A stretch of DNA of 64,000 nt, from assembly GCA_963827685.1 (NCBI GenBank), contig CAWHBU010000002.1:1056001-1120000 (forward strand), written 5' to 3'. The translations under genes and the position numbers were made by a program. The notes beneath the pieces were generated by a model. The model did no database searches. It was given only the letters and a program-made list of their open reading frames with translations, and was not told where the DNA came from. This DNA comes from an uncultured delta proteobacterium. GTDB lineage: Bacteria; Desulfobacterota; BSN033; UBA1163. Of this stretch, positions 4,858 to 55,301 are shown piece after piece (the first letter of the stretch is position 1; every line of letters starts with the position of its first letter).

Positions 4858-5013
4858 TGAAAAGAATCATAACACAACCCGCATAAAAAAGGCATTTTCC
4901 ATCGATCTTTTTAACAACATAGCTCCCCTCCCCTTTATCCTTACCTGCGGCAGGCAGGAATTGAGGGGAAGAGACCCAAATTCCGATTTAGAGAACGAGA
5001 CCCTTTTCCCATT

Positions 5014-5160
5014 CTGTCATTGCGAGCACCTAAGGTGCGTGCCTGCACGCCGAAGTGCTTGCCTTTGTTGAAGCAGATATGTGCAGCCAAACGTTCCGGC
5101 ACGCAGGCGTGGCAATCTCATGGAAAAGGCGAGATTGCTTCGTTCCACTCGCAATGACAA
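5014..5160. repeat. REP-like palindromic element with a nested insertion
   Basis: TGTCATTGCGAG...CTCGCAATGACA arms, GCAATCTC/GAGATTGC inner arms, nested CCTGCACGCCG...CGGCACGCAGG segment. Confidence 0.7.
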
Positions 5161-5194
5161 TTCCCTAAATTGGGATTTTGGTTCCACAAAAATA

Positions 5195-5232: not shown

Positions 5233-5309
5233 GGCGGTGTAGCTCAGTCGGTCAGAGCATGCGGCTCATATCCGCAGTGTCCGGGGTTCAAATCCCTGCA
5301 CCGCCACCA
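5233..5309 (+). tRNA. tRNA-Met(CAT), elongator type
   Basis: Full cloverleaf: GGCGGTG/CACCGCC acceptor stem, TGCGG-CTCATAT-CCGCA anticodon arm, GGTTCAAATCC T-arm, encoded CCA; paired G1-C72 argues against initiator (Ile2 not fully excluded). Confidence 0.93.
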
Positions 5310-5318
5310 AATTTCTTT

Positions 5319-5423
5319 TTAGTCAAATCTCACGACCAAGAACCCCATCGCCTTATCGGATCTTGCATCGTTAAGATACCACTTGGCTAACGCACTCGTA
5401 TCAAAGTAGATGACTTCGTTCAT
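5319..5423 (-). pseudogene. vapC: Truncated VapC/PIN toxin
   Basis: Manual translation MNEVIYFDTSALAKWYL... matches a PIN N-terminus; stops after 34 aa; ATG overlaps the antitoxin stop. Confidence 0.75.
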
Positions 5424-5647
5424 TGCCGATCTCTATCCTCACGGATAACCTTTTCGCTCCCCTTCCGCATGACAGGCATTCTTCTTCGAAGATCTCAATA
5501 CGATGGAATGGGCCTCTTCTTCCCGATTTGTGTTAAACGAGCAATGGCCTCTCCCAGGCGAGTGATGGTAACCTTACCGTCAATTTCCAGCAAACGGTCA
5601 AGGTGTGATAAGGATTGACGCATTTCCTTTATAGTAAGCTTTTTCAC
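5420..5647 (-). pseudogene. Phd/YefM-type antitoxin with internal stop
   Basis: Manual translation MKKLTIKEMRQSLSHLDRLL..VTITRLGEAIARL..PSY*DLR..IREDRD; in-frame TGA at 5495-5497. Confidence 0.75.
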
Positions 5648-5890
5648 TCCTCAACGTCCTTCTTATTATTGATGAGTACCCCCCATCGGGAAAATGGAAC
5701 TTGAACTGTTAATGACTGGAAATTTAAATGCCTTGTAACCGTTTGTTTATACATTATTTATTGAGAACCGTTCCCAGACTCGGTCCTACAAATCAATAAA
5801 TACCTAAAAGGACCCTCTTTTTTGCATCAGACTTATTCCAAACCCCATTTTAGAAGCTCAAAGGGAATTTAAGGCGATCAAAAATTTTTC

Positions 5891-5919
5891 TTGACAATCC
5901 TTTTTAAACTTTCTATAAT
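5891..5919 (+). promoter_or_regulatory. Consensus sigma70 promoter followed by TTCACCA direct repeats (putative RHH operator)
   Basis: TTGACA-17 nt-TATAAT exact; TTCACCA twice just downstream. Confidence 0.75.
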
Positions 5920-5963
5920 TCTTCACCAGATTTCACCATAATTAGTCACAACGGTGCACTAAT

Positions 5964-6173
5964 ATGGTAAACCAAAGATTGAGGCAACGGATTACCATAA
6001 GTCTTGATAAGGAGGCACTGGAAACCATCTCATCCATTGCTTCCGAAAATGACGTTTCAATAGCCCGTGTCATCCGATATGCGGTGGATAACTTGCTGAA
6101 AGAATGGAAAGAAGGCCGTCCAGATCAACTTCAACTTATTCTCCCTATGGGGAGAAAAAGGAGGTTGCAGTGA
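5964..6173 (+). CDS. CopG/ribbon-helix-helix DNA-binding protein
   Basis: RITISL beta-strand followed by two helices with VSIARVIRYAVD. Confidence 0.75.
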   Translation: MVNQRLRQRITISLDKEALETISSIASENDVSIARVIRYAVDNLLKEWKEGRPDQLQLILPMGRKRRLQ

Positions 6174-6174
6174 C

Positions 6175-6783
6175 ATGACAAATTTAATGGGAGGTTTTGA
6201 GAGAAATGCTCTCACCATAGAAGTGGAGCAGAAAAAACAGGAGGTTCCCAAAAAAGAGCAGGTGACAGCAACAGACCAGAAACATCTTGAAATGGCATCT
6301 GAATGGTTAAGGAGGAAAACAAAGGGAAGCCGATTTTATCCCTCAAGCGGTTTGGGGAAACGTGAAATTTTCGCAAACAGGGAGGCGATAGCAAGGGATT
6401 GGCAACATCTTGAATTGGTATATGAATGGTTAAGGATCAGAGGAAAAATTATGCCATTGATTCTTAAACGACGAATTTGGTGGGAACCCGTTGCCGAAGC
6501 TGCCAGCTATGTGGTGTACGTAAGCAAAGATAGAACAATTTTTGAGCCTACTAAATTCTTGCGGGAGGCTACTCATGGGATGATCTCTAAGGAAGTCACT
6601 GGGAAAATAGAGTTGATCATCCCAGATGAGTGGCCTGAGTTCCCCATAGAACCGGGAAGTTACCATATCGGGATTACTGTTCGAGACTGCGTGGGGAATG
6701 AAAGTGATCCTTTCTTATTGGTGGGGCAATTCAAATTCTTTGCCCCCCTTGCACCAGCAAAGGGTGGGATCCAGACTCTTTAG
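6175..6783 (+). CDS. Hypothetical protein: N-terminal duplicated helix motif plus FN3-like C-terminal domain (paralog of 61530-61862)
   Basis: WEPV..A.SYVVYVS...YHIGITVRD.VGNES pattern; close similarity to the 61530 ORF. Confidence 0.7.
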   Translation: MTNLMGGFERNALTIEVEQKKQEVPKKEQVTATDQKHLEMASEWLRRKTKGSRFYPSSGLGKREIFANREAIARDWQHLELVYEWLRIRGKIMPLILKRRIWWEPVAEAASYVVYVSKDRTIFEPTKFLREATHGMISKEVTGKIELIIPDEWPEFPIEPGSYHIGITVRDCVGNESDPFLLVGQFKFFAPLAPAKGGIQTL

Positions 6784-6824
6784 TTGAAATAATTCATCAC
6801 ACGGGTAATACAATTGTCGAAGAG

Positions 6825-6860
6825 CAAAGGCAGGGTCCAAAATGGCTCTGCCTTTTTTAT
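6825..6860 (+). terminator. Rho-independent terminator
   Basis: AAAGGCAGGGTC...GGCTCTGCCTTT stem followed by a T-run. Confidence 0.75.
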
Positions 6861-6958
6861 TATTACGTATAGCTACCAGCAATCGTCAACATTCAGGATC
6901 ATGCGCGCCCCCTTTTACAATCTATCAGACCAATTGATAGAGACCCCTAGTGGCCGAT

Positions 6959-7042
6959 GTGAAGCTCTTGATCGAGCTTCCGGAGAGGAATATTAATTCA
7001 TATTGTGTCCCTTCCAGGACCACAGGCCGGCCAAATCCCTGC
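6959..7042 (+). repeat. tRNA-Met 3'-end repeat, copy A (mini-element + CAAATCCCTGC)
   Basis: Near-identical to 21092-21175. Confidence 0.85.
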
Positions 7043-7203
7043 CCCTCATCTCCTCATCTTCATTTTAATGGAAATGGCCAAATTTCTCTATGGATGACAC
7101 TAAATTTCAAAGCCAAAGGCTAACTCTTTATCTTTATTTTGGCTTGACAATCATTTGATTATTTATTAAGAATGTATTACATTAATAGCAAATCGAGGAT
7201 ATC

Positions 7204-7479
7204 TTGAAAATAGAAAAAATCTCGTGGGATCAGGAAACATTTGATCATATTTCTAATCACCTGGTTTCGCCGGAAGAGGTTGAAGAGGTATTGTTTAATG
7301 ATGTAGACACAGCACTTATGATGCGGGGAAAAGAAGGCAAATATCTTGCTTATGGAAAAACTCATGGGGGACGGCTGTTATTCATCGTGTGGGCCTTAAA
7401 ATATAAAAAGACAAAAATCATTACTGCCAGAGACATGACCGAAAAGGAAAAACGATTTTATAGAAGGAGGAAAGAATGA
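7204..7479 (+). CDS. brnT: BrnT family toxin
   Basis: WD...HI..H.VS.EEVEEV, GRLLFIV, IITARDM...EKRFY. Confidence 0.85.
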   Translation: MKIEKISWDQETFDHISNHLVSPEEVEEVLFNDVDTALMMRGKEGKYLAYGKTHGGRLLFIVWALKYKKTKIITARDMTEKEKRFYRRRKE

Positions 7480-7730
7480 AAGTGCCGAAATTTAAGAGTT
7501 TAAAGGAAGAAAGGGAATTTTGGGATACCCATAATTCAATGGATTATCACGATGACTTCAAGACAACCAAAAATGTGGTTTTTGTTCGACCCAAGAAAGA
7601 AGTCATTTCATTACGTCTGGAGCCTAAGTTCATAAGGAGGTTAAGAGAGCTTGCTGATAAAGAAGGCCTACCTCCTACTACCTATGCCAGGATGTTAATT
7701 GTTAAGAGTATTCAGGCCCGTACAAAATAA
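7476..7730 (+). CDS. BrnA/CopG family antitoxin
   Basis: PKFKS..EEREFWDTH, C-terminal RHH ISLRL; ATGA overlap with the toxin. Confidence 0.85.
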   Translation: MKVPKFKSLKEEREFWDTHNSMDYHDDFKTTKNVVFVRPKKEVISLRLEPKFIRRLRELADKEGLPPTTYARMLIVKSIQARTK

Positions 7731-7886
7731 ACTCGCTTATAAATCCAGAAACGCACAAAAATTTCCTCCGGTTTTGACAAAACTGCACTCCAGATAATAG
7801 AAATTTTAAAATTAAAGATATTATTAAAATTTGCATTTTTGTTGAGAATTCGGCAGTTACTCAGTTAAAAGTTGCAGATTTGGTCC

Positions 7887-7903
7887 TTGGCACATGTTAT
7901 GCA
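7887..7903 (+). promoter_or_regulatory. sigma54 (-24/-12) promoter
   Basis: TTGGCACATGTTATGCA, GG-N10-GC. Confidence 0.65.
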
Positions 7904-8009
7904 CTAAAATCCTGAAAAACAAACCAACTTGGTGTCAAAATAGCGGCCTTAGTGGAAAAAGATATGCTACTCACTACTGCTCAGTGCGCACATGGAAAGG
8001 GGGAAACTA

Positions 8010-8519
8010 ATGAGAAAAACTAACGTGGGATCGGCGGTATTAATCGTGTTTCTTATGGCTATACTAACTGCAGGATGTGCCACAAGTGCTTACAAAGATG
8101 TTTATAAAGATGAAAATAGTCCTAATGTGAAAACCTTTAATGTATTGCCCGATGACTGCTATGTCGCAACGAAAAGGGCAGTATTAAGCCAAAATTTCAG
8201 GATTGAAAGAGAAGACTTGCAGGCAAGGTCATTTACAGCAGCAAGATATTTTGAGCATGGTAAAGATAGTACCGTTGTTACTGTCAATTCAAATGTCATC
8301 GCTGCAGGTAAAGACAAGTCCACCGTTTATGCCAGTGCTACCCAGCATGTAGAAAAAGTTAGAGTAAAAACTGACAGGACACTCCTTGGGATCGTCCCGG
8401 CTGGAAGTGAAGCTACGAAGGTGAAACAAGAGGAAAGGACAATTGAGGACAAGGATTTCTATAACAAACTTTTTGCAGCCATAGAAAAAGAGCTTAATAC
8501 TGTTGGAACAGGTAGATAA
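8010..8519 (+). CDS. DUF2242-like lipoprotein
   Basis: Lipobox LTAGC; ATKRAVLSQ and TIED.DFY..LF motifs; start chosen after the AAGGGGG RBS. Confidence 0.65.
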   Translation: MRKTNVGSAVLIVFLMAILTAGCATSAYKDVYKDENSPNVKTFNVLPDDCYVATKRAVLSQNFRIEREDLQARSFTAARYFEHGKDSTVVTVNSNVIAAGKDKSTVYASATQHVEKVRVKTDRTLLGIVPAGSEATKVKQEERTIEDKDFYNKLFAAIEKELNTVGTGR

Positions 8520-8577
8520 AAAAAATAAGGCTGTTCAATATCAGGCAATGTTTCTTAGGATACTGGATTCGGGCAGG

Positions 8578-8730
8578 GCTTCCGGAGAGGAAGCGTCGTT
8601 TATATTGTGTCCCTTCCAGGGCCACAGGCCGGCCAAATCCCTGCACCACCACCAATTTTTTTTGTTTCCTGGTTTGTATGTATAACCCCCGCGACTAAAC
8701 TTCGGTTATTTTCCATCAGACACGTTCTTA
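8578..8730 (+). repeat. tRNA-Met 3'-end repeat, copy B
   Basis: Mini-element tail, CAAATCCCTGCACCACCACCA, and ~75 nt of downstream sequence shared with 21186-21260. Confidence 0.85.
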
Positions 8731-8903
8731 CTCACAAAAAAACATAATAATTCAAGATATAGCCCCCTTTGTCTACGTTATAACTGTATCAGAAAAAACT
8801 CCTCATTGAATTGTTGTTATTCCGTTGAGCTTGAAAAGGGCAAGCGTACACCTTAACTGGGTATCCACTTTTTTGTGGTAAAGATCAATCCCAGCACAGT
8901 GGC

Positions 8904-10064
8904 TCAAATATTTAATCCCCTTCCTTTCAGTAACTGACGTGCTATGAATAGCTTCTCTACTTCCTTAGTCCCCTCATAGATTTCTACAATTTTAGCATCC
9001 CTATAAAAACGACTGATATCGTACTCGGCTAAATATCCATATCCTCCATGCAACTGCAAGGCCTCGTTGACGACCTTTACCCCGACTTCGCCAGCATACC
9101 ATTTAGCCATGGAGATGAGGGCAGGTTCAAACTGACCTTTATCTAAACTCCATGCTGCTTTGTATACTAAATTCCTTGCAGCTTCTGTCAAGGTCGCCAT
9201 CTCAGCCAATTTACCCTGTACCATCTGAAAGGATGAGAGGGGTTGCCCGAATTGCTTACGTTTCTTCACATGCTTTAACGCCAACTCCAGGGCCCCCTGA
9301 GCAATCCCCACACCTTGGGCAGCAGTGCCAGGCCTTGAACGATTAAAAAATTCCATGATGCAATTAAATCCTTTTCCCTCCTCCCCGACGAGATTCTCCT
9401 CAGGGACCCATACGTCGCTAAAGCTTATCTCTGCTGTGTCATGTGCCCGGATTCCCAGCTTTCCCTTCAATTTATTCCTTTCCAAGCCGGGTCGATCGGC
9501 TTCGATAATAATCACACTGTGCCTCTCATTGGGTGAGGCCGCATCGGGGTTACTCAGACAAAGGGTCACCATCATATTCGCAATATCTCCATTGGATATA
9601 AACATCTTTGATCCATTGATAAGATATCCATTCCCTTTCTTATCGGCTTTGGTGGAGACGGATAAGACATCACTGCCAGCATCAGGCTCCGTCACCGCAA
9701 CCGCACTGATCAACTCTCCTTTACATATAGGGGGAAGGTATTTCCTCTTCTGTTCTTCTGATCCCTTAAGGAGTATCATTTCACTTCCGAAGCATGTACA
9801 CATAAGCTGCCCACCCAGACCCGGGTCAACTCTCCAAAACTCCTCCATAATGATGGCATTCTCTAAAAATCCGAACCCTCCTCCTCCGTATTTTTCATCT
9901 ATAAAAATTCCGATGAATCCCAGTTTTGAGGCTTTCCTTAATAGTTCAAGATTAAAAGTTTCCTCCAGATCACATTCCTTGGCGATATTTGGAAACTCTC
10001 CCTCTGCAAACTCCCTCGCCGCCTTTCTTATATCCCGTTGGGCCGGCGTTAAACTAAAGTCCAT
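8904..10064 (-). CDS. Acyl-CoA dehydrogenase
   Basis: TEPDAGSD, NGSKMFISNG, RKQFG, QLHGGYG, IYEGT.E. Confidence 0.95.
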   Translation of the reverse strand: MDFSLTPAQRDIRKAAREFAEGEFPNIAKECDLEETFNLELLRKASKLGFIGIFIDEKYGGGGFGFLENAIIMEEFWRVDPGLGGQLMCTCFGSEMILLKGSEEQKRKYLPPICKGELISAVAVTEPDAGSDVLSVSTKADKKGNGYLINGSKMFISNGDIANMMVTLCLSNPDAASPNERHSVIIIEADRPGLERNKLKGKLGIRAHDTAEISFSDVWVPEENLVGEEGKGFNCIMEFFNRSRPGTAAQGVGIAQGALELALKHVKKRKQFGQPLSSFQMVQGKLAEMATLTEAARNLVYKAAWSLDKGQFEPALISMAKWYAGEVGVKVVNEALQLHGGYGYLAEYDISRFYRDAKIVEIYEGTKEVEKLFIARQLLKGRGLNI

Positions 10065-10115
10065 TTTTCCCTCCCATGAACCTCATGAAGATTATAAGAC
10101 ATTATCTCCGGCAGC

Positions 10116-11186
10116 CTATTTTTTAGTCCCTTCCCGATGGAGGTTCGCCTGACAAACTCTACAGTTTTTTCTTGTCGCGACATTGATGATCTTGCATCTT
10201 GGACATATGATTTCCAGCTTATCCCTGACCCATCGGGTAATGCCTTCGGGCATATAGAGAATCATCACGATAATAATGGCCGTAAAGAGAGCCATTCTTA
10301 TTTCAGGAACGATGACCAATAATTGCGTTGAAAGAAAGTAAAGCAGATAAGCCCCTATGACTGGACCGTAAATCGTCCCGGCCCCACCAAAGACCGTCCA
10401 TATTAATGGATAGATCGAAAAAATGAACTCCAGGGTTGTGGGACCTACCACCTTCATGGTGTGAGCATACAGCCCACCGGAAATTCCAGCAAAGAAACCG
10501 CTTAAGGCAAAGGCGAGTATTTTATATTTGACGGTGTTAATCCCCGTTGTCCGGGCTGAAATTTCATCTTCCCTGATAGCGCAGAAGATAATTCCAGTTC
10601 TAAGTATACGACTTTTTGTATCGGTCAGCTTCCACATAATGGCAACAGAAATCAACATAATCACGAGGCAAAAAAGATAAAGAAATATTGGGGAATCTGA
10701 AATACCCGGTAAGCCAAAGAGCCCCAATTCACCTCCAGTAAATTGAGGAAAAAGGAAGACAACTCCTTGCAGAATGACAGGCACAGCTAAGGTCACAATC
10801 GCGAGATAGGGGCCCCTTAGCCGAAGCGCAGGAATGGCTACAATGACCCCGATGATGACTCCGGCAATAGCACCCATCGGTATGGTCAACGAAACTGGCA
10901 AACCCACTTTTGAACTCAGGATCGCAGACGTATAAGCACTGACTCCGAAAAAAGCACCGTGGCCCAAGTTAAGTTGTCCGGAAAAAAATAATAGGTCCCA
11001 ACTGGCGGCTAAAAGAGCAAATATGGAAGAAAATACAAGTAGGTTCTTTAGATACGGACTGATGTTTAAAAAGCCCAGTAATAGAAGAAAAATAATTCCT
11101 ATGGACCCAATCGCCCTACCCGGGATCACCAATATTTCTTCTTCAAGTATTTTATAAAGACGCCAGAGATAATAGCGCATCTTCAC
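10116..11186 (-). CDS. Branched-chain amino acid-type ABC permease (LivM-like) with C-terminal double zinc ribbon
   Basis: GQLNLGHGAFFG, LRLRGPYLAI.TLA, AIREDE; ends CPRC...CRVC. Confidence 0.9.
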   Translation of the reverse strand: MKMRYYLWRLYKILEEEILVIPGRAIGSIGIIFLLLLGFLNISPYLKNLLVFSSIFALLAASWDLLFFSGQLNLGHGAFFGVSAYTSAILSSKVGLPVSLTIPMGAIAGVIIGVIVAIPALRLRGPYLAIVTLAVPVILQGVVFLFPQFTGGELGLFGLPGISDSPIFLYLFCLVIMLISVAIMWKLTDTKSRILRTGIIFCAIREDEISARTTGINTVKYKILAFALSGFFAGISGGLYAHTMKVVGPTTLEFIFSIYPLIWTVFGGAGTIYGPVIGAYLLYFLSTQLLVIVPEIRMALFTAIIIVMILYMPEGITRWVRDKLEIICPRCKIINVATRKNCRVCQANLHREGTKK

Positions 11187-12052
11187 AACCTTTCCTCTTC
11201 AAAGAACGCTCCAAACATTCCTTCGGGTTTTTTCGATAGCACAATCACCATCACCAACAAGGCAATCGCATTCTTGATGAAAGCTCCCATGGGGAGCCAG
11301 TTGACCACGGCCACTTCAGAAAACGCCAGGAGATAAGCTGCAATAAAACTTCCTTTCAGGCTACCCAACCCTCCTAGGACGACGATAGCCAATACCATGA
11401 TCATGGGATGTACCCACATCAAGGGCTCAACCACATAGATCGGGGAGACCAGAATGCTCGATATCGTTACAAACCCAATCCCTATACACATGGCGATCAG
11501 AGACAGCTTTTTTTCATTGATTCCCATGACATTGACTATTTCCCTGTCTTGAGAGGTTGCCCGAATGGCTATCCCCACTCTGGATCTTGACAAGAAGAGC
11601 CACAAACTAAGAATGAGAGCGATGCTCACACCGAATGCGAGAAAGTGCTGATTTAAAACCCTAACCTCTAAGAGTTCTTGATATCCTGAAATGAAAGGGG
11701 GAACCCGACGAAAATCCGTCCCAAAGATAGAAATGATGCATTCTTCAAAGAAGAAAGCTGAAGCGATGCTGATGAGAATCACCACTGTCTCATGGGAACG
11801 GATGGGTTCAAGAACAAATTTGTAGGTCGCCACCCCTATGAAGGAGGCGACCCCAATGGCGAGGATCGCTGAAATAAAGATGTTGAGGTGAACGAGGGAG
11901 CAAAAGACATAGAAAAAGTAGGCCGCTAACATATAAAAAGAGGTGTAGGCCAAATTGACGATTCTCGCCGCCCCCCAGATAAGAGAGAAGCCGAGAGCCA
12001 AAACGGCATAAACCGTTCCAAGAACAATTGAAATGATCAGAACCTGGATCAT
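11183..12052 (-). CDS. ABC permease (LivH-like)
   Basis: YAVLALGFSLIWG, GIAIRA, VVLGGLGS. Confidence 0.9.
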   Translation of the reverse strand: MIQVLIISIVLGTVYAVLALGFSLIWGAARIVNLAYTSFYMLAAYFFYVFCSLVHLNIFISAILAIGVASFIGVATYKFVLEPIRSHETVVILISIASAFFFEECIISIFGTDFRRVPPFISGYQELLEVRVLNQHFLAFGVSIALILSLWLFLSRSRVGIAIRATSQDREIVNVMGINEKKLSLIAMCIGIGFVTISSILVSPIYVVEPLMWVHPMIMVLAIVVLGGLGSLKGSFIAAYLLAFSEVAVVNWLPMGAFIKNAIALLVMVIVLSKKPEGMFGAFFEEERL

Positions 12053-12113
12053 CTATTTTCCTTTCAACCCCTCCCTCTCTCCCTTACGGGCAGAGGGAGG
12101 GATGTAAGGAGTC

Positions 12114-13406
12114 TCATTTCTTTTTCTTCCAATAGTCTACTACCCATGGTGGCAATAAATACTTTTCAGACCCTTCATACTTCACGCCCTGCCACTCGTA
12201 GGGCCAGACAACCACAACCTTTCCCGGACCGCGCCATTGATTGACCACCCAGGTGTTATATCCGGGACCGAATCTCAGATCATGAGGAAATTGGTGATCT
12301 CGAGGATAAAAGACCATCCTGCCGTAAGCTCCTTTATAATCTGTCTTTTCAAGCTCGGTGACCACTTTGTCGGAGTCGATGGTGCCTGCCCGCTCAATCG
12401 CTTCTTTCAATACATAGACCGCATCGTAGGTGACACTTACATAACCGGGAAAATCATCAAATGCCTTCAGATAGGCATTCCAAAAGGGCATCGTCTTTTC
12501 GCTCAACTTTGCAGGACCGATACCGATCATCGTCGAACTGTAATTACCATACCCACCTGTCGCGTCCCAGAAGGTTTTCACACAGGCAATGGCAGCTCCT
12601 CCAACCAAAGCAGCCGGAATTTTAAGCTCACCCCATTGCTTCCCAAGAACAGATCCCATCGTGCCGGAGACTGATTGGAAGATAATCTGAGCTCCGCTCG
12701 CCTTGATCGCCGAAAGTTCAGCCGTCACATCGCTGGCTGTTGCAGAAGGTCTCCAAGCTCCGACCACTTCGAGGCCCATTCCTGGGGCCTTCGTTTCGAC
12801 CGCCTTTACAATCGGATCGGCCCACATAAGTTTATCAGCCAAGATGGCCACCTTCGGCTTTGCAATCCCTATCTGTTCTTTTACGATCTTGGCAACATCC
12901 TCCAGATGAGCGAAAAGGACTTGCCCCTGGGCAATAGAGTTGATGGTCATTCTAAAAGTATATTTGTACTTGTCATAATCCTTTGCAACCCGAGCCAAGA
13001 GATCCGGATGAACGGCACCGCATAGAACGAAGATTTTCTTGTACTTCATCGCCACATCCTGCATGGCAAGCGCTGATTCTGACCTCTGTGTGCCGATGAA
13101 AAAATGAACTTCATCCGCCGCTCTTTCCACTGCGACGACCGCATCGGAAACACTGGCGATCTCGTTTGTATCCACCCTGATGAGCTTGATTGGCACCTTG
13201 GCGCCTCCCAAAGTCACCCCGCCGGCTTTATTGATCTCTTCCTGTGCTATGGAAGCTCCCCGCCAATGATCCCGTCCAAACACAGCTTTCATAGGCCCTG
13301 CAACTCCAATCCTGACCTCTTTGACAGCTTGCTGTGCCAGCCCCCCGCCTGCCAAAAAAGAAAGCAAACACAGACTCACCACACCTACGATCATTCCCTT
13401 TCTCAT
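12114..13406 (-). CDS. ABC substrate-binding protein (LivJ/K-like)
   Basis: Signal peptide; IGVAGPM, EEINKAGG, YDAVYVLKEAIERAGT. Confidence 0.9.
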   Translation of the reverse strand: MRKGMIVGVVSLCLLSFLAGGGLAQQAVKEVRIGVAGPMKAVFGRDHWRGASIAQEEINKAGGVTLGGAKVPIKLIRVDTNEIASVSDAVVAVERAADEVHFFIGTQRSESALAMQDVAMKYKKIFVLCGAVHPDLLARVAKDYDKYKYTFRMTINSIAQGQVLFAHLEDVAKIVKEQIGIAKPKVAILADKLMWADPIVKAVETKAPGMGLEVVGAWRPSATASDVTAELSAIKASGAQIIFQSVSGTMGSVLGKQWGELKIPAALVGGAAIACVKTFWDATGGYGNYSSTMIGIGPAKLSEKTMPFWNAYLKAFDDFPGYVSVTYDAVYVLKEAIERAGTIDSDKVVTELEKTDYKGAYGRMVFYPRDHQFPHDLRFGPGYNTWVVNQWRGPGKVVVVWPYEWQGVKYEGSEKYLLPPWVVDYWKKKK

Positions 13407-13546
13407 CGTAAAGCCCTCCTTTCCTTCAAAGTTTTCTTACTCACAGAATAGCCCCATTTTAAAGATGATTGACCCCTCCCTTCTCCTCAACCTTCAGGCC
13501 GGAGGAGATCGCACTGTATTTTTGTGGCTCCTCGGCGCCATCCGAG

Positions 13547-14302
13547 CTATAAACCCAGGTAGGTCTTCCTGATCCGCTCATCGTCTTGTAGTGCTTCAGA
13601 TGTTCCTTCGAAGACGACCTTCCCTTGGGAAAGCACGTAATTTCTTTGAGCTAAAGCAAGTGCAAGACTCACATCCTGTTCCACTAAAATGATCGTCACC
13701 CCAGTCTGATAAACATCCTTAATACGCTTAAATACTTCATCTTTTATCATAGGGGCGAGCCCAAGAGAGGGTTCGTCGATCAATAGAAGCTTGGGCTCGG
13801 ACATCAATGCCCTTCCGATAGCCAGCATGGTTCGCTCTCCCCCGGAGAGGGTACCGGACATTTGTCTTTTTCTCTCTTCTAATATTGGAAAGAGTTTGAA
13901 AACTGCTTCTAATCTTTGCCTTATTTTTTCTCTTTCTTTAATCAAAAAAGCCCCCGTTATTAAATTATCAAAGACGGTCAATTCCCGAAATGGCCTTCCC
14001 CCTTCTGGACAGAGAATTAACCCTTTTTCTGCTCTCTGATGAGCTGGCACGGAATTGATCGGCTCCCCTTCAAAGACGATCTCGCCTTCGATAATAATAT
14101 TAGAGACTTCTTTCCTCATTCCCCTCTTCATCTCTCTTTCCCAGCTCATCAGTCCGCATATGGTTCGAAGAAGAGTCGTTTTTCCAGCACCGTTTGGGCC
14201 TACAATACTGAGGAGCTCCCCTGTATGAACCCCTAAACTTACCCCATCTAATACCACCGCAGTATCATAGGCAACGGTGACATTCTTTGCCTCAAGGAGC
14301 AT
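13547..14302 (-). CDS. ABC ATP-binding protein (LivF-like)
   Basis: GPNGAGKT, LSGGE, DEPSLGLAP. Confidence 0.92.
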   Translation of the reverse strand: MLLEAKNVTVAYDTAVVLDGVSLGVHTGELLSIVGPNGAGKTTLLRTICGLMSWEREMKRGMRKEVSNIIIEGEIVFEGEPINSVPAHQRAEKGLILCPEGGRPFRELTVFDNLITGAFLIKEREKIRQRLEAVFKLFPILEERKRQMSGTLSGGERTMLAIGRALMSEPKLLLIDEPSLGLAPMIKDEVFKRIKDVYQTGVTIILVEQDVSLALALAQRNYVLSQGKVVFEGTSEALQDDERIRKTYLGL

Positions 14303-15071
14303 TTCTATCTCCTCTTGATCGGTGCCCTATATAAATTTCAATGACCTTTGGGTTGTGTACGATTTCCTGAGGCGTGTCTTCGGCAATCAGTTCACCGTAG
14401 TTTAGCACAATCACGCGGTCGACTATTTTCATCAGCTCCGATAACTTGTGTTCCACGATCAACATCGCCGGGCCTTCGCTATGTAATCGACCAAACCTCC
14501 CGCCCTTGTGCAACCTTTTTAGGGACTTCGCCATCAGATCCGTTTCATAGGGGTTCAAACCCCCGAATGGTTCATCGAGTATGAGCAACTCGGGTTCAGT
14601 AGCAAGGGCCCGTGCAATTTCAAGGCGCGTAAGATCTCCGTGAGAGAGAATGGAAGCTTTTTCCTTGGCCAGATCTGAAATTCCACAAAACTCCAGCGCA
14701 TCCATTGCCATACTTTCTACTCTTTTTACCCATTCCCCTCCCTTTCTTCCTGAGCCAAGGCACCCGATCATCGCATTGGCAATAATAGGCAACTCCCGAA
14801 ATGGCCTTACGACCTGATGGGTCATGGCTATCCCTTTTTTTACGATATCCCAGGGTGGATGGCCTATAATCTCCTCGCCATTGAACCGAATTGTCCCAGA
14901 ATCAGCTTTTAACATGCCTATGATAAGGCGCACCAAAGTCGTTTTTCCCGAACCATTTGGACCAATCAGCCCTACCATTTCATTTCTTCCCATGCTAAAG
15001 TTAAGTTTTTTGACTGCCATCAGGCCACCAAAAGACTTCGTTAAGTTCTCAATCTCGAGAAAAGATGCCAT
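14292..15071 (-). CDS. ABC ATP-binding protein (LivG-like)
   Basis: FGGLMAV, GPNGSGKT, LDEP, VEH. Confidence 0.92.
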   Translation of the reverse strand: MASFLEIENLTKSFGGLMAVKKLNFSMGRNEMVGLIGPNGSGKTTLVRLIIGMLKADSGTIRFNGEEIIGHPPWDIVKKGIAMTHQVVRPFRELPIIANAMIGCLGSGRKGGEWVKRVESMAMDALEFCGISDLAKEKASILSHGDLTRLEIARALATEPELLILDEPFGGLNPYETDLMAKSLKRLHKGGRFGRLHSEGPAMLIVEHKLSELMKIVDRVIVLNYGELIAEDTPQEIVHNPKVIEIYIGHRSRGDRNAP

Positions 15072-15072
15072 T

Positions 15073-16830
15073 TTAGCCTTCCCTCTCCTCCCTTAACTCC
15101 CTTCGCGATACTTTTCCGACATCCGTCCTCGGGATCTCTCCTCGAAACTCTATAATCTTCGGAACCTTGTAATGAGCCAATTTTTCTTGGCAGTGACTGA
15201 CAATTTCCTCTTCCGACATTTTCCCTCTTGCATCAGCCTCTAATACGATCACCGCTTTAATGTTTGCACCGACCTTCGGGTCAGGAACCCCTATGACCGC
15301 AGCTTCCTTTATCTTAGGATGGGTTTTTAGAACCTCTTCTATTTCTCGGGCAAAGATGGAATACCCCTTGTATTTGATCAAATCTCTTTTTCTATCGTAG
15401 AAATGAACATAACCCTCATTATCCATTCGGACTAAGTCACCTGTCATAAGCCACTTTTCTCCCGCGATTTCCAGAAAAATTTTTCCTGTTTCTTCCGGCC
15501 TGTTCCAATAACCCTTCATCACCTGGGGACCCCTTACCACCAGTTCACCTATTTCTCCGAGCGGAACCATTTCTGCCGTGTCAGGATGGACAATGGCTAC
15601 CACCGTGTTAGGCAATGGAACTCCGAAGGAACCCATCTTAGGCCTTCCAACCGGGCTAACGCAGATTCCTGAAGAGGTCTCGGTTTGCCCATAACCTTCG
15701 TGGATAAAAGTACCTGTCCGCCTCTCCCAAATCTTAGCTGTATCTTCAAGAAGCGAGTCAGCACCAGAAACGAGGAACTTGAGTCGTTTCCAGTCCACTC
15801 TACCCGTCCTGTCATAATCTTTAAGAAGTTCGAATAAACCCGGTACACCCATAAAAAATGTTGCGTCATATCCTCCGACACTGCTTAAAACGTCATCGAT
15901 GTCAGGGGTGGTTAATATGACGAGTGTATATCCTCGAACAATACCACTGATTAAAAGTACCACCTGGCCGTAGATATGGTAAAAGGGCAAAAAGGCGATC
16001 ACAGTCTCTTTTCCTTCTTCGAGATTCTTCCCCTTTTCAAAGCTGTAGGAATAGAAAGTTTGGTTGATGGCTTGCATCGCAAAAATATTAAAATGAGTTA
16101 GCATCGCACCCTTTGGAGGGCCTGTCGTCCCACCCGTATAGGGGAGTGCAGCTAAGTCTTCCTTTGGATTAATCTCGATCTTTGGTGGATTCGGTTGACT
16201 TTTTTTAATCAAATCCTGAAACCAGTGAATATTCTTACCCTCTTGAATCTTAATCTTTGGAACCTCCATTTTTTGGTATACAGCTTTCAAAATGCTTTTT
16301 CCAAAAACCTTCTTTAGGCTTGGTAAGTACTCATCGATACTTGTTAAAATAATTCTTTTTAATCCCACGTTCGTTTTCTCAACAAAGTGATGGAGTATAT
16401 CCAGGCAAATGATCGTTTCGGCGTGGCTGTCTTCAAGCTGGTGTTTCACCTCCGGGGTAACATAGACCGGACTGATGGGTGTCAGGATAGCTCCTATTCT
16501 AAGAGCTCCGAAATAGGCTATAACGAATTGGGGACAGTTCAATAGAAACAAGGCTACGGTATCTCCTTTTCTGATTCCCAAATCATAGAGACCCGTGGCA
16601 AATCTATCAACTTGATCCTTTAATTCCAAATAGCTTATTTTTTTGCCATAAAAGATTAAGGCGGGTTTATTTTTCCATTTCTCTACCGCTCTATCAAAAG
16701 CTTGAATTAACGAGATGTTGGGGATGTCGATTTCGTGAGGGAGCCCCTCAGGATAAAATTTAAGCCAAGGTTTATTGAGATATAAATTTTCCCTCTCCTT
16801 TTCCGTTCCAACCTTACTTTCCATAAACAA
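15073..16830 (-). CDS. Long-chain fatty acid/acyl-CoA ligase
   Basis: YTGGTTGPPKG, EGYGQTE, TGD, DRKRDLI. Confidence 0.92.
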   Translation of the reverse strand: MFMESKVGTEKERENLYLNKPWLKFYPEGLPHEIDIPNISLIQAFDRAVEKWKNKPALIFYGKKISYLELKDQVDRFATGLYDLGIRKGDTVALFLLNCPQFVIAYFGALRIGAILTPISPVYVTPEVKHQLEDSHAETIICLDILHHFVEKTNVGLKRIILTSIDEYLPSLKKVFGKSILKAVYQKMEVPKIKIQEGKNIHWFQDLIKKSQPNPPKIEINPKEDLAALPYTGGTTGPPKGAMLTHFNIFAMQAINQTFYSYSFEKGKNLEEGKETVIAFLPFYHIYGQVVLLISGIVRGYTLVILTTPDIDDVLSSVGGYDATFFMGVPGLFELLKDYDRTGRVDWKRLKFLVSGADSLLEDTAKIWERRTGTFIHEGYGQTETSSGICVSPVGRPKMGSFGVPLPNTVVAIVHPDTAEMVPLGEIGELVVRGPQVMKGYWNRPEETGKIFLEIAGEKWLMTGDLVRMDNEGYVHFYDRKRDLIKYKGYSIFAREIEEVLKTHPKIKEAAVIGVPDPKVGANIKAVIVLEADARGKMSEEEIVSHCQEKLAHYKVPKIIEFRGEIPRTDVGKVSRRELREEREG

Positions 16831-16857
16831 TCCCCTTTCGCGGAATTAGAAGTTTGT

Positions 16858-18348
16858 TTAGATTTTTGGCGGAAACTCCGGCAACTGGCTGTATAGTCCA
16901 TCCTCTGTCCCATCCTTAATCCTTGCTGCTCGCTTCGCGGCTGCTCTATATTTTTCAAAGTCAGCCAGCGCATAGATGGAAAGCCTCTGTGCGGCCAGGG
17001 ATCCTTCGGCATGAAGCGTCAGAACATCTTCATAGGAAGAAGTGAGTTCTCTGATTAGCTTAATTAGCCGGAGTCTATATTCTGTCGGTATGCCTGCCTT
17101 CCCTCCAAGGTACTTATCGATGAGGTCGTGAATCTCAGGATTGAGGTAATCTTTCGAAGAAGGGGCTGTGGCGACAATGCCTCCGGCGATATCCTGAAGA
17201 TACTTCGTCGCCTGATGCCAGTTATCCGCGAAGAAAAGCTTTGCAATATTTGCGTACATAGGATTTGGATAAACCAACTTTGAATCATGTTCAGAAACAC
17301 AGTGTTCGCAAGCCGCCCTGCCCATCACTTCGGTTGCCTCCGCATAGAGAACGAGCCAAGCCAGCTTATCCTGGATATGTGAGACTTTCTCAACGCCATT
17401 ATATTCGGCCATCAATGCGGCAGCGCCAGCAACCAGCTCAAGTTCCACGGCCTTATAGGTCTCAGCACTAAGGCGGTGAAAATTGCCAAACATGTAGGCG
17501 ATGTCACCGGCAAATGGCCACTCGCCTTTCATAAAGACCCGCTCATTGGGGATAAAGACGTCATCAAAGATAACCATGGCATCGTTCAGATAGATACTCG
17601 CGGTAATGGGATTATCGAAAAAATTGCCCGATTCTTTGATCTCGGGTTCAGCAGAGATCAGGGTAAGACCTTTTGCATTGGCCTGCACGGCAAACGAAAC
17701 AGCATAGGCCTTATCATCTTCACGCATTGCCCGACATGGCAAGATGATGATCTCGTTGGCCAGCGGCGCCTCACTGATATGCGCTTTGGCCCCTCGGACG
17801 ACTATGCCATCCTTACGCTCCTCCACAATCCTTACGTAGTAGTCTTGGTGGGGTTGCTGCTTTGAGGGACGCAGACTTCTATCTCCTTTGACATCGGTCA
17901 TCCCCAAAGCAATGGAGGCATCGGTTTTAAGAAGGTACTTTCGATAGGCCTCCACTCGCCCGGCATAATTTGTCCCATGTTCCTTATCGATGCGTTGGGT
18001 GACCACCGTGACAGCATTCAGTCCGTCTTTGCCGACAAATTTAGCTCCGGACGGCTTTCCATAGCAAACCCTTGCCCAGAGCTTAACGATTTCCCTCAAC
18101 CTCAGCAGGTCCTCAACACTCGTTTGCGGCATAAAGACAAAACTGCCTAACTCCCCCTCTTCCGTCTTCTCGGTGACAAGGCGCTGGTAGCGTGGATCCT
18201 GCTGCAGCACATAATCCATCGCCATCCAGTCTATACAAATCCTCAAGATTGGGTGCTGCGTCACATCCTTCACCCTCTCCCCCAGACAATAGACCGCTCG
18301 ACCATCCTTCAGACTTTCTACATATTGTTGCGGTGTTCTAATAGCCAT
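16858..18348 (-). CDS. 4-hydroxybutyryl-CoA dehydratase / HpaB family flavoprotein, divergent
   Basis: TDVKGDRS.RPS.Q, GIVVRGAKAHI, FDDVFIPNERVF, LHAEGS. Confidence 0.85.
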   Translation of the reverse strand: MAIRTPQQYVESLKDGRAVYCLGERVKDVTQHPILRICIDWMAMDYVLQQDPRYQRLVTEKTEEGELGSFVFMPQTSVEDLLRLREIVKLWARVCYGKPSGAKFVGKDGLNAVTVVTQRIDKEHGTNYAGRVEAYRKYLLKTDASIALGMTDVKGDRSLRPSKQQPHQDYYVRIVEERKDGIVVRGAKAHISEAPLANEIIILPCRAMREDDKAYAVSFAVQANAKGLTLISAEPEIKESGNFFDNPITASIYLNDAMVIFDDVFIPNERVFMKGEWPFAGDIAYMFGNFHRLSAETYKAVELELVAGAAALMAEYNGVEKVSHIQDKLAWLVLYAEATEVMGRAACEHCVSEHDSKLVYPNPMYANIAKLFFADNWHQATKYLQDIAGGIVATAPSSKDYLNPEIHDLIDKYLGGKAGIPTEYRLRLIKLIRELTSSYEDVLTLHAEGSLAAQRLSIYALADFEKYRAAAKRAARIKDGTEDGLYSQLPEFPPKI

Positions 18349-18433
18349 CCAAGTCCCTTTCGTATTCGGCCATGCCGAGTTAACATTTCCCGATTCAGTG
18401 GGCCACTGTCCCTACCGTCCCTTTGCGACCTTC

Positions 18434-19885
18434 TTACCGGCCAATATACTTTAGCGCATTCTCCCCAGCAATGCGCCCCGAGTTGAGTGCAAAACCGCTG
18501 CTAGCCCCGGACGCGATGACGTCATAGCTATCACCGTACAAGCCGCCCGCGTCATTGCCAACGGCATACAGGCCAGGTATCACCTTGTCGTTCCTGTCGA
18601 GGACTTCCGTCTTCTCATTGATCTTGATGCCGCCAAGCGTGCCCAGAAAGTTCATATAGCACTTGAAGGCATAGAACCTGGGGGTCTTGACCGGACGGAG
18701 ATACTCTGGATCTTTCGCAAACTGATCGTCGTGTCCTTTTTCACAGAACCTGTTGTACTCTTCTACGGTCTTTTTGAAAATAGCGCAGTCAATGCGCATT
18801 TTGTTCGCCAGTTCATCGAGGGTGTCGGCCACAAATATGAAGGGGCTCTTTTTCTCGACAGCAGCCTTAATCTTAGTATCCAGGTCCGTCAGAGGTGTTC
18901 TCGGCGGCACATACATGCCGACACCGATACCCCCGTTTTCTGCCAACTGGATCTTTGTTTCCTCATCGAATATCCTGAAGACATAGCCTCCCTTCTGCTT
19001 CGACATGGCGTTCCCGGCATAAGCGATGTTCTCGACGATCGTCTCGTCACAGAACCGGACTCCATCCTGGTTCACCCAGAGCGTGGGCTGACCCACGGCT
19101 CCCCAGATATGGCTGCGGGCTCCGATTTTGGGCGGCGAGCCGATGTTAAGGTGGATAACGCCGACCCCCTCCTCTGCAGCTCCCGCTTCCCAGGCCATCT
19201 GGATGCCCTCACCCGTTTTGTTGTATCTGCCTAAAGGGAAAAGGTTTACCTCAAGGTCGAAGCCCGAGTATTTCTTGATCCACTCCTTGTTGTTTGGGTA
19301 GCCGCCCGTGGCGATGATGACCACTTTAGCCTGCACCTTGATCTGTTTACCCGTTTTATCCTCGACAACAGCCCCCGTGACTGGTCCGTTTCCTTCACGC
19401 AGGAGATGCTTAACGGTAGTCTCGTACCGAACTTCGACGCCTTTCTTGACCGCATTGGCCACAAGGACGTTGATCGCGACTCCGCCCAACCCCTTGAACA
19501 GGTGCCATGTCCTGGGGCCTCCCAACAATACCCCTCTTGGCTCGGTGAATTCAACGCCCTGCTTCTCCAACCAGTCAATGGTGCTGGCTGATTTATCGAC
19601 GAAGGCCCGTACAAGAGCAGCATTAGCCTTCCAGTGACTGTATTCCATGATACCCCTAAAGGCTTCATCCCGCGTCACCTTGATGTTTGTCTTCCGTTGC
19701 ATATCGCTATCGGCTGCAAAGGTACCTTCCACGAATAGGAAGCTGCCTCCTGCAAACGGCATCTTCTCAAAGATAACAACCTTGGCTCCGCCCACAGCAA
19801 GGGTCAGGGCGGCTGCAAGACCCGAACCCCCGGCGCCCGCGACGATCACATCCTTCGTTTCTGGGAACAAATCCCGATTTTTCAT
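18434..19885 (-). CDS. FAD-dependent oxidoreductase (fumarate reductase flavoprotein-like family)
   Basis: GAGGSG FAD motif, IIATGGY, GTLGGIKIN, GLYAVGND, SGRIAG. Confidence 0.88.
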   Translation of the reverse strand: MKNRDLFPETKDVIVAGAGGSGLAAALTLAVGGAKVVIFEKMPFAGGSFLFVEGTFAADSDMQRKTNIKVTRDEAFRGIMEYSHWKANAALVRAFVDKSASTIDWLEKQGVEFTEPRGVLLGGPRTWHLFKGLGGVAINVLVANAVKKGVEVRYETTVKHLLREGNGPVTGAVVEDKTGKQIKVQAKVVIIATGGYPNNKEWIKKYSGFDLEVNLFPLGRYNKTGEGIQMAWEAGAAEEGVGVIHLNIGSPPKIGARSHIWGAVGQPTLWVNQDGVRFCDETIVENIAYAGNAMSKQKGGYVFRIFDEETKIQLAENGGIGVGMYVPPRTPLTDLDTKIKAAVEKKSPFIFVADTLDELANKMRIDCAIFKKTVEEYNRFCEKGHDDQFAKDPEYLRPVKTPRFYAFKCYMNFLGTLGGIKINEKTEVLDRNDKVIPGLYAVGNDAGGLYGDSYDVIASGASSGFALNSGRIAGENALKYIGR

Positions 19886-20062
19886 TTTACCCTTTTTCTA
19901 CTCTCCATTTCTTGGTTCATTTTAGACCCCTTGTTGTCATACACACCCCCATCTCTCTAATGGCGATCGTCCTGTCCTTATACCCGCAATGATGCCTACT
20001 GCGCACTAGCACCGCCATCCAGAATCACACCCGGCCATGCCGAGCAGATATTTCCCGGATAG

Positions 20063-20731
20063 TCACTCCATGACGCCCAATCCTCTTAAGATAAAGTCAA
20101 CTGACGAATCGACATTCTTCCTTGTCGGTCTATCCCTCAAGGTCCAACCCCTCAAAGACAGAAAGACCACGAGGTAAGCAATCAAACTTGCCAAAAAATC
20201 TAAATCACCTTTAACTGATTTTGGTTTCTTTATCTCCCTCAATAAGGTGCGCCAGAAGCCAATCACATTGTTGTAATCCATTTCCAGAACGATCCGTAAG
20301 TGCTTCTTGTCCAGATACTTGCTTTCTGTATAAATAAATTGGATTAGTTTTCTATTTTCAATGATAAATTGTAAGTTACAATGGAGAGCCTTAATCAACT
20401 TTTGCAGGGGATCTTCGATTTGTTCCAAGTTAGACTTTTTTAAGTATTCGTACCAGACCTTCTGCATGTGTCTATGTACCAAATACAACACGTCATCTTT
20501 CGAAGAGATATAATGATAGAGCTGCCCCATGGACATGCCGCAAGATTTTGCTATCTCGCGGATAGTCGTCGGATGGTATCCCTTTCTGAAAAATGTTCTA
20601 CAGGCCCCGTCCACGATTTGCCGATGCTTACTTTCAACCAGTGGAACATTCTTAGTAGAAACCCTAATCAGATGATTCGGAAAAACCTCACTCTGATTTG
20701 CAGTAGTTGATTCCTTCTTAGTGCTCGTCAT
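20063..20731 (-). CDS. TetR/AcrR family regulator
   Basis: KGYHPTTIREIA...GMSMGQLYHYISSKDD HTH. Confidence 0.9.
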   Translation of the reverse strand: MTSTKKESTTANQSEVFPNHLIRVSTKNVPLVESKHRQIVDGACRTFFRKGYHPTTIREIAKSCGMSMGQLYHYISSKDDVLYLVHRHMQKVWYEYLKKSNLEQIEDPLQKLIKALHCNLQFIIENRKLIQFIYTESKYLDKKHLRIVLEMDYNNVIGFWRTLLREIKKPKSVKGDLDFLASLIAYLVVFLSLRGWTLRDRPTRKNVDSSVDFILRGLGVME

Positions 20732-21070
20732 GGTCCCCTAAATGCGTCGCAAAATAAATATAGAGCAAGCGCTCGATTTACCTTCTATCTAAAACAAAAT
20801 ATTTTGTCAAGTATTTTCTTACCGCGACTACAAAAAATTTGGAAAGGCTATATTTCCATATAGTTATATGCCGAAAGGAGAGGTCAGTCTGACATTGTCC
20901 TGCCAAGGCAAGTTTCTCGTTTCAATGAAGAGAGGGGGATGAATCACCTAAAATTTTTTTATGTAGACGCCGCCTGATAATATCCGATTTGTCCCAGGTA
21001 AAAATGTCCGCTTGGGCCTAAGGGCAGAGAACTCTTCGTTGAGATAAGGAAGTCTCAAAGCGGGTTCAAA

Positions 21071-21260
21071 CTCATATCCGCAGTGTCCGGGGTGAAGCTC
21101 TTGATCGAGCTTCCGGAGAGGAAGCGTCGTTTATATTGTGTCCCTTCCAGGACCACAGGCCAGCCAAATCCCTGCACCGCTACCAAATTTCTTTTTTCCT
21201 GGTTTGTATGTAAAACCCCTGCCCCTAAACTTCGGGCGATTTTCATCCGAGACGTTCTTA
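21071..21260 (+). repeat. tRNA-Met 3' half (attR-like) interrupted in the T-loop by a 71-nt element, copy C
   Basis: 21071-21093 matches tRNA 5265-5287; insert 21094-21164; 21165-21196 matches the tRNA end plus its downstream AATTTCTTTTT. Confidence 0.9.
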
Positions 21261-30982: not shown

Positions 30983-30990
30983 GTCTATCC

Positions 30991-31063
30991 TCGGCAACCC
31001 GGCTATCCCATCGGGACCCGTGGCTTTCCGTCCCACGATTACTCGTGGTTTGGCTTTATCGGT
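30991..31063 (-). ncRNA. c-di-GMP-I (GEMM-I) riboswitch
   Basis: Minus strand CGATAAAGCCAAACC..GTAA..GGGACGGAAAGCC.CGGGTC..GATAGCCGGGTTGCCGA fits the GEMM-I consensus. Confidence 0.9.
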
Positions 31064-55121: not shown

Positions 55122-55148
55122 CGGGATATAGGGGACGGCTTCTCTTAT

Positions 55149-55301
55149 GAAGGCCCCCGACCACAAGCCGGGGCTTCCCGGGCACGTAGTGGCGAGCGGA
55201 AAGCGAGCAAAGGAAATATCGTTTTAATTGTGCCCCTTGAGCCCGCCTACCTGCCTACCGCAGGCAGGCAAGGCGGGGCTTGCGGGGCACTTGCCTGTCA
55301 A
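55149..55301. mobile_element. Non-autonomous IS200/IS605-like palindromic mini-element with a nested 19-nt insert
   Basis: GAAGGCCCC...GGGCTTC and GCCCC..GAGCCCGCC...GGCGGGGCTT..GGGGCAC hairpins; ends TCAA; insert at 55250-55268. Confidence 0.65.

Follow-up and report, generated by a model that had tools for sequence, protein, structure and literature searches.

Displaced tRNA-Met halves with a trimmed MITE-like repeat divide what is probably an array of decayed, integrase-less genomic islands in uncultured Syntrophaceae-type bacteria

The 64,000-nucleotide (nt) stretch of DNA analysed here, termed the window throughout (contig CAWHBU010000002.1, positions 1,056,001 to 1,120,000), belongs to the genome of an uncultured Syntrophaceae-type bacterium (G000) and holds a tRNA-Met gene whose 3' part recurs downstream on the same strand in three copies, A, B and C, each with all or most of a 71-nt insert in its T-loop and with blocks of cargo genes in between (Table 1). 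The account that fits this arrangement best, and to which slightly better than even confidence is attached, is that of genomic islands of the integrase type that were stacked in tandem at the 3' end of tRNA-Met and are now decayed and integrase-less, akin to cis-mobilizable elements (CIMEs), in which the attachment (att) site has absorbed a MITE (miniature inverted-repeat transposable element). Comparison between genomes shows the repeats, their variation, an integrase at the same tRNA in relatives, homology of the arms that flank the copies, and the derivation of the insert from a MITE-like repeat.

The tRNA-Met gene is the only tRNA gene that ARAGORN and Rfam find in the window, and one of three CAT tRNAs among the 49 tRNAs found in the genome. 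Its match to copy C begins two bases 5' of the anticodon and extends into the T-loop (tRNA positions 33-55), 23 out of 23 bases of 5265-5287 being equal to 21071-21093. The 'core', by which is meant the tRNA end together with the next 11 nt (5289-5320), is 97% identical to 21165-21196 in copy C and 88% to 8634-8665 in copy B. The insert of copy C (21094-21164) recurs in copy A (6949-7045, 89% over 97 nt), and copies B and C have 73 nt of downstream flank in common (8658-8730 against 21188-21260, 82%). All these similarities lie far above chance, and the three insert-bearing copies described in the initial annotation of this DNA, which had been made from the letters alone, are thus borne out by the repeat search. 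Since the copies are only 82-92% alike, misassembly by collapse of repeats appears unlikely. A whole-genome search adds a fourth, inverted copy, D, at G000:C2:1124297-1124408, ~4.3 kb past the end of the window, which is the sole place outside the window where the 71-nt form occurs in the 5.2-Mb genome. In what follows, the combination of tRNA piece, insert and core is called the unit.

To judge from alignment, the 71-nt insert derives by trimming from a MITE-like repeat of ~108 nt. Its long relatives (~105-110 nt) lie at loci unrelated to tRNA-Met and keep the two basal stems and the linker of the insert, each stem carrying in addition a GC-rich hairpin tip; in other words, both tips are gone from the hairpins of the att-site copy, whose basal stems are kept. 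The three inserts of the window score z 7.4-10.9 against the repeat consensus (0/1000 shuffles), that of copy C with 56 of 68 aligned bases identical (z 7.4). The repeat is abundant in G000, with 74 nhmmer matches, 59 of them full length, and 90 blastn pieces, and it has matches in 45 of the 55 family genomes used for comparison (Syntrophaceae-type metagenome-assembled genomes from 21 genera), with up to 98-182 first-look candidates per genome. Moreover, two copies in G000 are filled sites whose orthologues are empty, the one in G005 and the other in G006 and G002, from which it follows that the repeat is, or was, mobile. Among 58 copies, the flanking base is T at -1 in 46, and A at +1 in 51 and at +2 in 39; the T-loop sequence offers a T...AA site of this type, the exact target being ambiguous by 0-2 nt at the two empty sites. 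No terminal inverted repeats of the ~108-nt repeat are seen by eye, nor any clear target duplication, and no parent transposase or element was seen. Six long-repeat loci have no match in Rfam at E<=1, and neither the unit nor the repeat is mentioned in the parts of the literature that were searched, PMC13685792 included, the supplements of which may hold tables of repeats or islands. The initial description of the insert as a mini-element is therefore correct; its connection to the tRNA holds for the 71-nt form, which is tied to the array, but not for the parent family, which is spread through the genome with no tRNA link.

Further copies of the repeat lie just outside the window, at G000:C2:1120837-1120946 and 1124508-1124556. 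In some copies hairpin 2 encloses a further palindrome, smaller and likewise GC-rich (G000:C2:987560-987690, C2:500727-500856, C7:206420-206550 and C4:~298357), which suggests another REP-like mobile sequence that targets the ~108-nt repeat.

An insert-bearing unit is present at tRNA-Met in eight of the 55 family genomes, from three of the 21 genera. Additional sets of metagenome contigs and genome contigs were collected by means of a pattern inside the insert, such that units lacking the insert are unsampled and the pattern positions are conserved by construction. True units make up six of the nine genome-contig matches, the other three being chance matches without the rest of the unit, and 44 of the 51 metagenome matches, from which L068, L069, L072, L088, L101 and L106 (unrelated) and L076 (a long-form repeat) were dropped. 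Wherever a tRNA lies on the same contig as a unit, it is always tRNA-Met, upstream, in the same orientation and 0.2 to 5.8 kb away. An empty site is seen in G009, in which the flank of copies B and C comes immediately after the tRNA (87% over 87 nt for that of copy C). Across three genera and the 44 metagenome contigs, one and the same trimmed insert is joined to many right flanks and to left arms of at least six kinds, and the tRNA-derived parts and the insert are 81-92% alike between genera whose flanks cannot be aligned. The genes at these flanks are unrelated to each other: the 20 unit-flanking proteins scanned with Pfam are metabolic, transport, regulatory or defence-type and include an FMN oxidoreductase, an M24 peptidase, PrpD, MFS transporters, GntR/IclR regulators, SDR, SIR2-like and AAA_21 proteins and FtsH, with no recombinase among them; neither was any recurrent neighbour found on clustering 478 flank open reading frames (ORFs).

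A link between the unit and a recombinase comes from two relatives. In G004 an intact 398-aa tyrosine integrase (Phage_int_SAM_5 and Phage_integrase domains) comes next after tRNA-Met, upstream of which is a conserved 1177-aa peptidase gene; the sequence directly after the tRNA overlaps the integrase ORF at its end. A flank of that kind separates tRNA-Met in G015 from an integrase with stop codons, that is a pseudogene, 59-61% identical to that of G004. Flanks of this type also occur after the tRNA in G019, after copy D in G000 and after several metagenome units, in all of these without an integrase gene. On a second contig of G004 there is an uninterrupted tRNA half, starting from the anticodon loop and running into the flank that follows the tRNA in G000 and G010, and this looks like the displaced half left by the G004 element. 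The 125 nt to the left of it are homologous to the left arm of all 12 metagenome units tested (z 3.9-14.2; 0/500 shuffles in 11 units, 2/500 in one), and a left arm of the G004 type is found in 20 of 41 aligned units. With the integrase beside the tRNA in G004 and G015, this arm homology identifies the units, at the level of sequence comparison, as putative att-type junctions of the element family of the G004-type integrase. The co-occurring integrase that the initial annotation had envisaged can thus be pointed to in relatives, as one intact gene and one pseudogene, though not in seven of the eight unit-bearing genomes, and the TnpA transposase that it had named as the other candidate is unlinked to the repeat (see below).

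The arrangement of the blocks around the units bears on where recombination took place. Intact units have left boundaries that cluster at the anticodon loop and right boundaries at the end of the core, which are simply the margins of the block identical with the tRNA. Flank families that stand after a clean tRNA in some genomes stand after insert-bearing units in others, a pattern that could not result if the crossover were fixed 5' of the insert. In G010 (locus L036, G010:C1) a 1,360-nt block is duplicated at 98.97% identity (9774-11133 and 16675-18034), and both blocks are bounded exactly by the 21-nt tRNA end, one starting at the core that goes with the tRNA, the other at the core that closes a full unit, and each ending at the core that comes next, with outer flanks that differ. 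Each block holds a homologue of 5321-5673, an A-type partial unit and BrnTA. On metagenome contig L085 a C-type unit precedes the module of the ribbon-helix-helix (RHH) gene, the 202-aa ORF and an A-type unit, an order that G000 does not have, and its homology with the window breaks off at 21201, 5 nt beyond the core; G003 has yet another module order. Taken together, the swapping of flanks, the G010 blocks and the orders in L085 and G003 indicate exchange 3' of the insert. The unit does, on this comparative evidence, behave as a recombination joint, and its propagation as that joint is plausible; this is the part of the initial proposal that the recurrence of the unit across species between changing cargo upholds. 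There are other differences between genomes: 5674-6987 is missing in G010, with ~100 nt in its place, 6988-7732 is present there twice (93%), and the first cargo block lies elsewhere in the array of G003. The view that the blocks are separate acquisitions at a tRNA hotspot is supported. As to products of excision or integration, none of the junctions in short Logan contigs assembled from four DNA runs is decisive: a weak joint 5310 -> 21306 occurs in two of the four, with 22 letters on the shorter side, and a back-joint 21235 -> 8723 in one; stretches without contig cover, among them 7804-8437 in three runs, are left uninterpreted.

Some further observations concern these rearrangements. Between BrnA and the next unit in G010 the DUF2242 gene (7804-8437) is gone, with 95 nt instead, and in run X2 a loose end at 7732 leads on to sequence that looks, by eye, like the version in G010. 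The region that flanks copy D in G000 is adjoined in G003 by an A/D-type unit, and therefore the ~47 kb between C and D (21197 -> G000:C2:1124296) seems to be inverted in G000. Copy D appears to be an old terminal unit.

A mechanism that would account for the array can be formulated as follows. A family of elements with tyrosine integrases would integrate at tRNA-Met by means of an element-borne attachment site (attP) that carries a tRNA copy from the anticodon loop to just beyond the CCA. In one lineage, a ~108-nt MITE-like repeat would have landed at the T-loop position of the tRNA-like block of attP and been trimmed to 71 nt. Necessarily, with the insert in attP, only an exchange 3' of it would leave the essential tRNA intact, from which strand exchange is inferred to lie within the last 21-32 nt, in the core. 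Each integration would then leave arm, tRNA piece, insert and core as its distal junction, and repeated integration, exchange between cores, deletions and loss of the integrase would have produced the present array. Both the place of the MITE-bearing unit in a mobile attP and the position of the crossover we infer from the sequences. CIMEs are att-flanked blocks without recombination genes of their own, movable in principle by an integrase acting in trans. The att-flanked blocks described here are likewise without recombination or transfer genes of their own, and G000 now appears to be without a cognate integrase, such that the blocks would be fixed unless an integrase were supplied in trans, as for cis-mobilizable elements.

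Several observations weigh against this account. There is no integrase in the island: of 19 PF00589 matches in G000 the nearest is ~346 kb from the array, in keeping with what the initial annotation had said of the window. Seven of the eight unit-bearing genomes lack a close homologue of the G004 integrase, the best match in G000 has 32% identity and lies at another locus, and tblastn of the G004 integrase against the unit-bearing loci gives no remnant. In no element seen does an integrase occur together with an att site that bears the MITE, the site of G004 itself being without the insert. Partial copies start at varied points of the insert (at about base 16 in copy B, ~38 and ~58 in G010), and some cargo breakpoints, at ~5673, ~6861 and ~7732, lie outside the repeats, so that the predicted variation of cargo among relatives is realised in the differing orders and the core-bounded G010 block, but not with every breakpoint in a repeat; those outside look like illegitimate events. 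The core-bounded duplication could have arisen through RecA acting on 22-32 nt. The ~73 nt of native flank in B and C (82% alike) are not expected in a minimal attP. Finally, the pattern by which the metagenome units were collected lies inside the insert, and therefore conservation of those positions is partly built in.

The G004 integrase has few close homologues, with matches at E<=1e-40 in five of the 55 genomes, intact at the tRNA only in G004. No serine recombinase was found in the genome, and a blastp comparison of 11 G000 integrases with the 478 flank ORFs returned one 48-aa fragment only. The viral contigs held neither a unit nor a relative of the G004 integrase. By PF00589, no tyrosine recombinase lies at the array in G000, G003, G004 (contig C93), G010, G012 or G019, and no intI-like gene was found there.

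Much of this would also follow if the copies were passive scars, in which case one displaced tRNA half acquired a MITE and was thereafter inherited vertically and rearranged by homologous recombination, segmental duplication and deletion, the unit never having been part of a mobile attP and having no role in recombination. The scarcity of integrases and of integrase remnants beside any unit, the varied truncation points within the insert, the breakpoints outside repeats and the diverged native-flank copies on B and C are all as this explanation would have them, and the recurrence of the A, B and C types in congeneric genomes is explicable by vertical descent of an old array. Less readily accommodated are the association of one trimmed insert with at least six left arms and many right flanks across three genera and the 44 metagenome contigs, the likeness of tRNA parts and insert (81-92%) between genera against flanks that are unalignable, the exchange of places by flank families between tRNA and units, and the 99% identical block in G010 bounded exactly by cores. 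The passive explanation is consequently rated as unlikely, if the most serious of the alternatives.

The decayed-island account also has a stronger form, in which the trimmed MITE would have been co-opted as a working part of the att site. Its basal hairpins would be under selection, viable crossovers would be limited to the last ~21 nt, the junctions would act as harmless secondary landing pads, and the integrase-less blocks would be shuffled by a rare passing relative that bears an integrase. Were this so, the array would be a cassette platform made of a tRNA half and a domesticated MITE. This form is speculative, and rather doubtful at present.

A third possibility, that the unit is a small structured RNA gene or terminator made from a tRNA half and a MITE and kept for its RNA function, with the island junctions coincidental, is improbable. 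Hairpin 3 of the unit shows compensatory pairing, with 160 of 184 cells paired in 23 distinct stems against 151.1 +/- 2.3 with shuffled partners (0/2000 reach 160), and RNAalifold gives 20 pairs, four of which have double changes, but these hairpins came with the MITE, among the copies of which the stems covary similarly, as judged by eye from paired changes in long copies of the parent repeat. The left arm common to many loci resembles, by eye, a -35/-10 pair with a variable spacer, and for both L111 and copy C a terminator-like hairpin, its tail rich in T, is predicted within the insert; a promoter scan, however, called neither the arm in L111 nor anything upstream of copy C, and the terminator-like counts are within shuffle range. 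Moreover, that arm is homologous to the att arm adjoining an integrase-bearing element and is homologous neither to the promoter nor to the 5' half of the tRNA (z about 0), and the unit has no match in Rfam, which at the gathering threshold finds nothing in the window besides the tRNA and a riboswitch. The minus strand of hairpin 3 is the more stable in 35/41, where perfect stems already differ by ~1.7 kcal and G-U and A-C cases both occur. A reading of the unit as paralogous to the entire tRNA gene and equipped with a promoter of its own was rejected, comparison of the left arm with the tRNA promoter and 5' half giving z -1.0 to 1.6 in 20 comparisons.

The integron-like platform that the initial annotation had favoured, in which the insert and tRNA end would form the specific site of a dedicated trans-acting recombinase, possibly a Y1 transposase, is very improbable: module order does vary between genomes, a block is duplicated between cores and the genome has 21 high-scoring IS200-type TnpA copies, but there is no intI-like gene at the array in the six genomes scanned with PF00589, the unit keeps its sequence and, unlike an attC site, does not form an imperfect palindrome, the cargo includes a ten-gene operon with its own regulator on the opposite strand, no repeat match lies within 3 kb of the 25 PF01797 TnpA loci checked, four units stand against at least 21 insertion sequence (IS) copies, and the site-linked recombinase of relatives is an ordinary tyrosine integrase. 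Neither the integron comparison nor the Y1 transposase as driver is supported. No link of the unit or the repeat to IS200 TnpA, IS110 or serine recombinases was found, the IS200 and IS110 copies being at other loci.

As a separate matter, an IS200-type Y1 transposase gene is present in the window (44268-44630, minus strand), and G000 has 20 further high-scoring PF01797 loci. The copies share scores, 18 loci having one common score and three another, which suggests that an IS of this type is active in G000.

Table 1. Coordinates of the tRNA-Met anchor, its downstream copies, the cargo blocks and a long repeat copy in the window.
Feature	Position	Strand	Basis
tRNA-Met (CAT), intact, attachment site	5233-5309	+	ARAGORN; Rfam RF00005, 69.3 bits
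Block shared with the downstream copies, from the anticodon loop to 11 nt beyond CCA; its 3' part, 5289-5320, is the core	5265-5320	+	Repeat search
Cargo block 1: unannotated stretch; RHH gene 5964-6173 (+); 202-aa ORF 6175-6783 (+), no known family	5321-6948		
Copy A: decayed tRNA piece, full insert, decayed core	6949-7045	+	Repeat search, alignment
Cargo block 2: BrnT 7204-7479, BrnA 7476-7730 (CopG type), DUF2242 protein 7992-8519	7204-8519	+	Pfam
Copy B: insert from ~16th base, core 8634-8665, diverged native downstream flank 8666-8730	8578-8730	+	
Cargo block 3: ten-gene catabolic/transport operon with TetR regulator	8904-20731	-	Pfam
Copy C, tRNA piece, anticodon loop to T-loop, 23/23 equal to tRNA	21071-21093	+	
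Copy C, 71-nt insert, trimmed copy of genome-wide ~108-nt repeat	21094-21164	+	
Copy C, core (21165-21196), then native flank that directly follows the tRNA in G009	21165-21260	+	
Diverged long copy of the repeat, no tRNA link	55148-55302	+	Three blastn pieces, ~85%

The operon of block 3 encodes, by Pfam, an acyl-CoA dehydrogenase, two Liv-type permeases, a binding protein, two ABC ATPases, an AMP ligase, an HpaB-like protein, an FAD protein and TetR, and no recombination or transfer genes are found by Pfam among the large ORFs between 5964 and 20731. The initial labels of RHH, BrnTA, DUF2242 and catabolic operon agree with Pfam, but those of an FN3 protein and a vapBC relic have no family behind them: the 202-aa ORF has no match in Pfam or NCBIfam, and the stretch taken for vapBC, 5321-5673, consists of five short frames with no Pfam match at E<=1. 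The 202-aa ORF holds an internal direct repeat of 79 nt (6235-6313 and 6358-6436, 71% identity). Elsewhere in the window Rfam finds a c-di-GMP-I-GGC riboswitch at 30989-31063 on the minus strand (70.8 bits). Upstream of the tRNA, at 4974-5170, lies a palindromic element with inverted ends, a related copy of which is at L045:13744-13832; contigs of all four DNA runs skip ~34 nt of it (5057-5092), and the element is therefore length-polymorphic among related strains.

As to what the array means, it marks a hotspot for the exchange of defence-type genes, toxin-antitoxin pairs and catabolic operons among uncultured syntrophic bacteria of wetland and peat, at which an integrase is for the most part not resident. 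Its peculiarity is the trimmed MITE fixed in the att block and carried along with it across genera, which offers a natural marker for the position of strand exchange in a tRNA-targeting integrase system. A by-product of the analysis is an abundant family of structured ~108-nt repeats that is absent from Rfam.

Among known systems, the parent repeat is to be compared with the bacterial MITE and REP-type repeats, such as Correia, ERIC, RUP and REPIN. Like these, it is a short non-coding sequence that has two GC-rich hairpins, reaches dozens of copies in a genome and is present or absent at orthologous sites; unlike them, it has no terminal inverted repeats, clear target duplication or parent transposase that could be found. 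Repeats of this type are the subject of a review (PMC10969869). The likeness to the attC/attI platform of integrons is that cargo units are split by a recurring structured site beside a fixed anchor, but here there is no intI, the units are 81-92% alike and not palindromic overall, and the cargo is not promoterless and is of mixed orientation. Close to the array are the CIMEs and the site-specific accretion of streptococcal integrative and conjugative or mobilizable elements (ICE/IME; review PMC5704250). In common with CIMEs, att-flanked blocks without recombination genes are stacked beside a conserved target; in contrast to the streptococcal systems, no ICE or conjugation genes are seen, and the hosts are uncultured Syntrophaceae-type bacteria. 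So are the tandem islands that tyrosine integrases build at tRNA and tmRNA genes, such as the ssrA islands of Dehalococcoides (PMC3146451) and the asn-tDNA islands of Klebsiella (PMC4891358). Shared by both are directly repeated 3' parts of the RNA gene between the islands, an empty site in a relative, an integrase beside the gene in some relatives and variable cargo. The differences are that nearly all arrays here are without an integrase, and that the displaced copies, save the newest in G004, hold a trimmed MITE in the tRNA-identical block. In other words, the array is an unusual variant of an ordinary tRNA-Met island hotspot, by which current models of island integration are not overturned.

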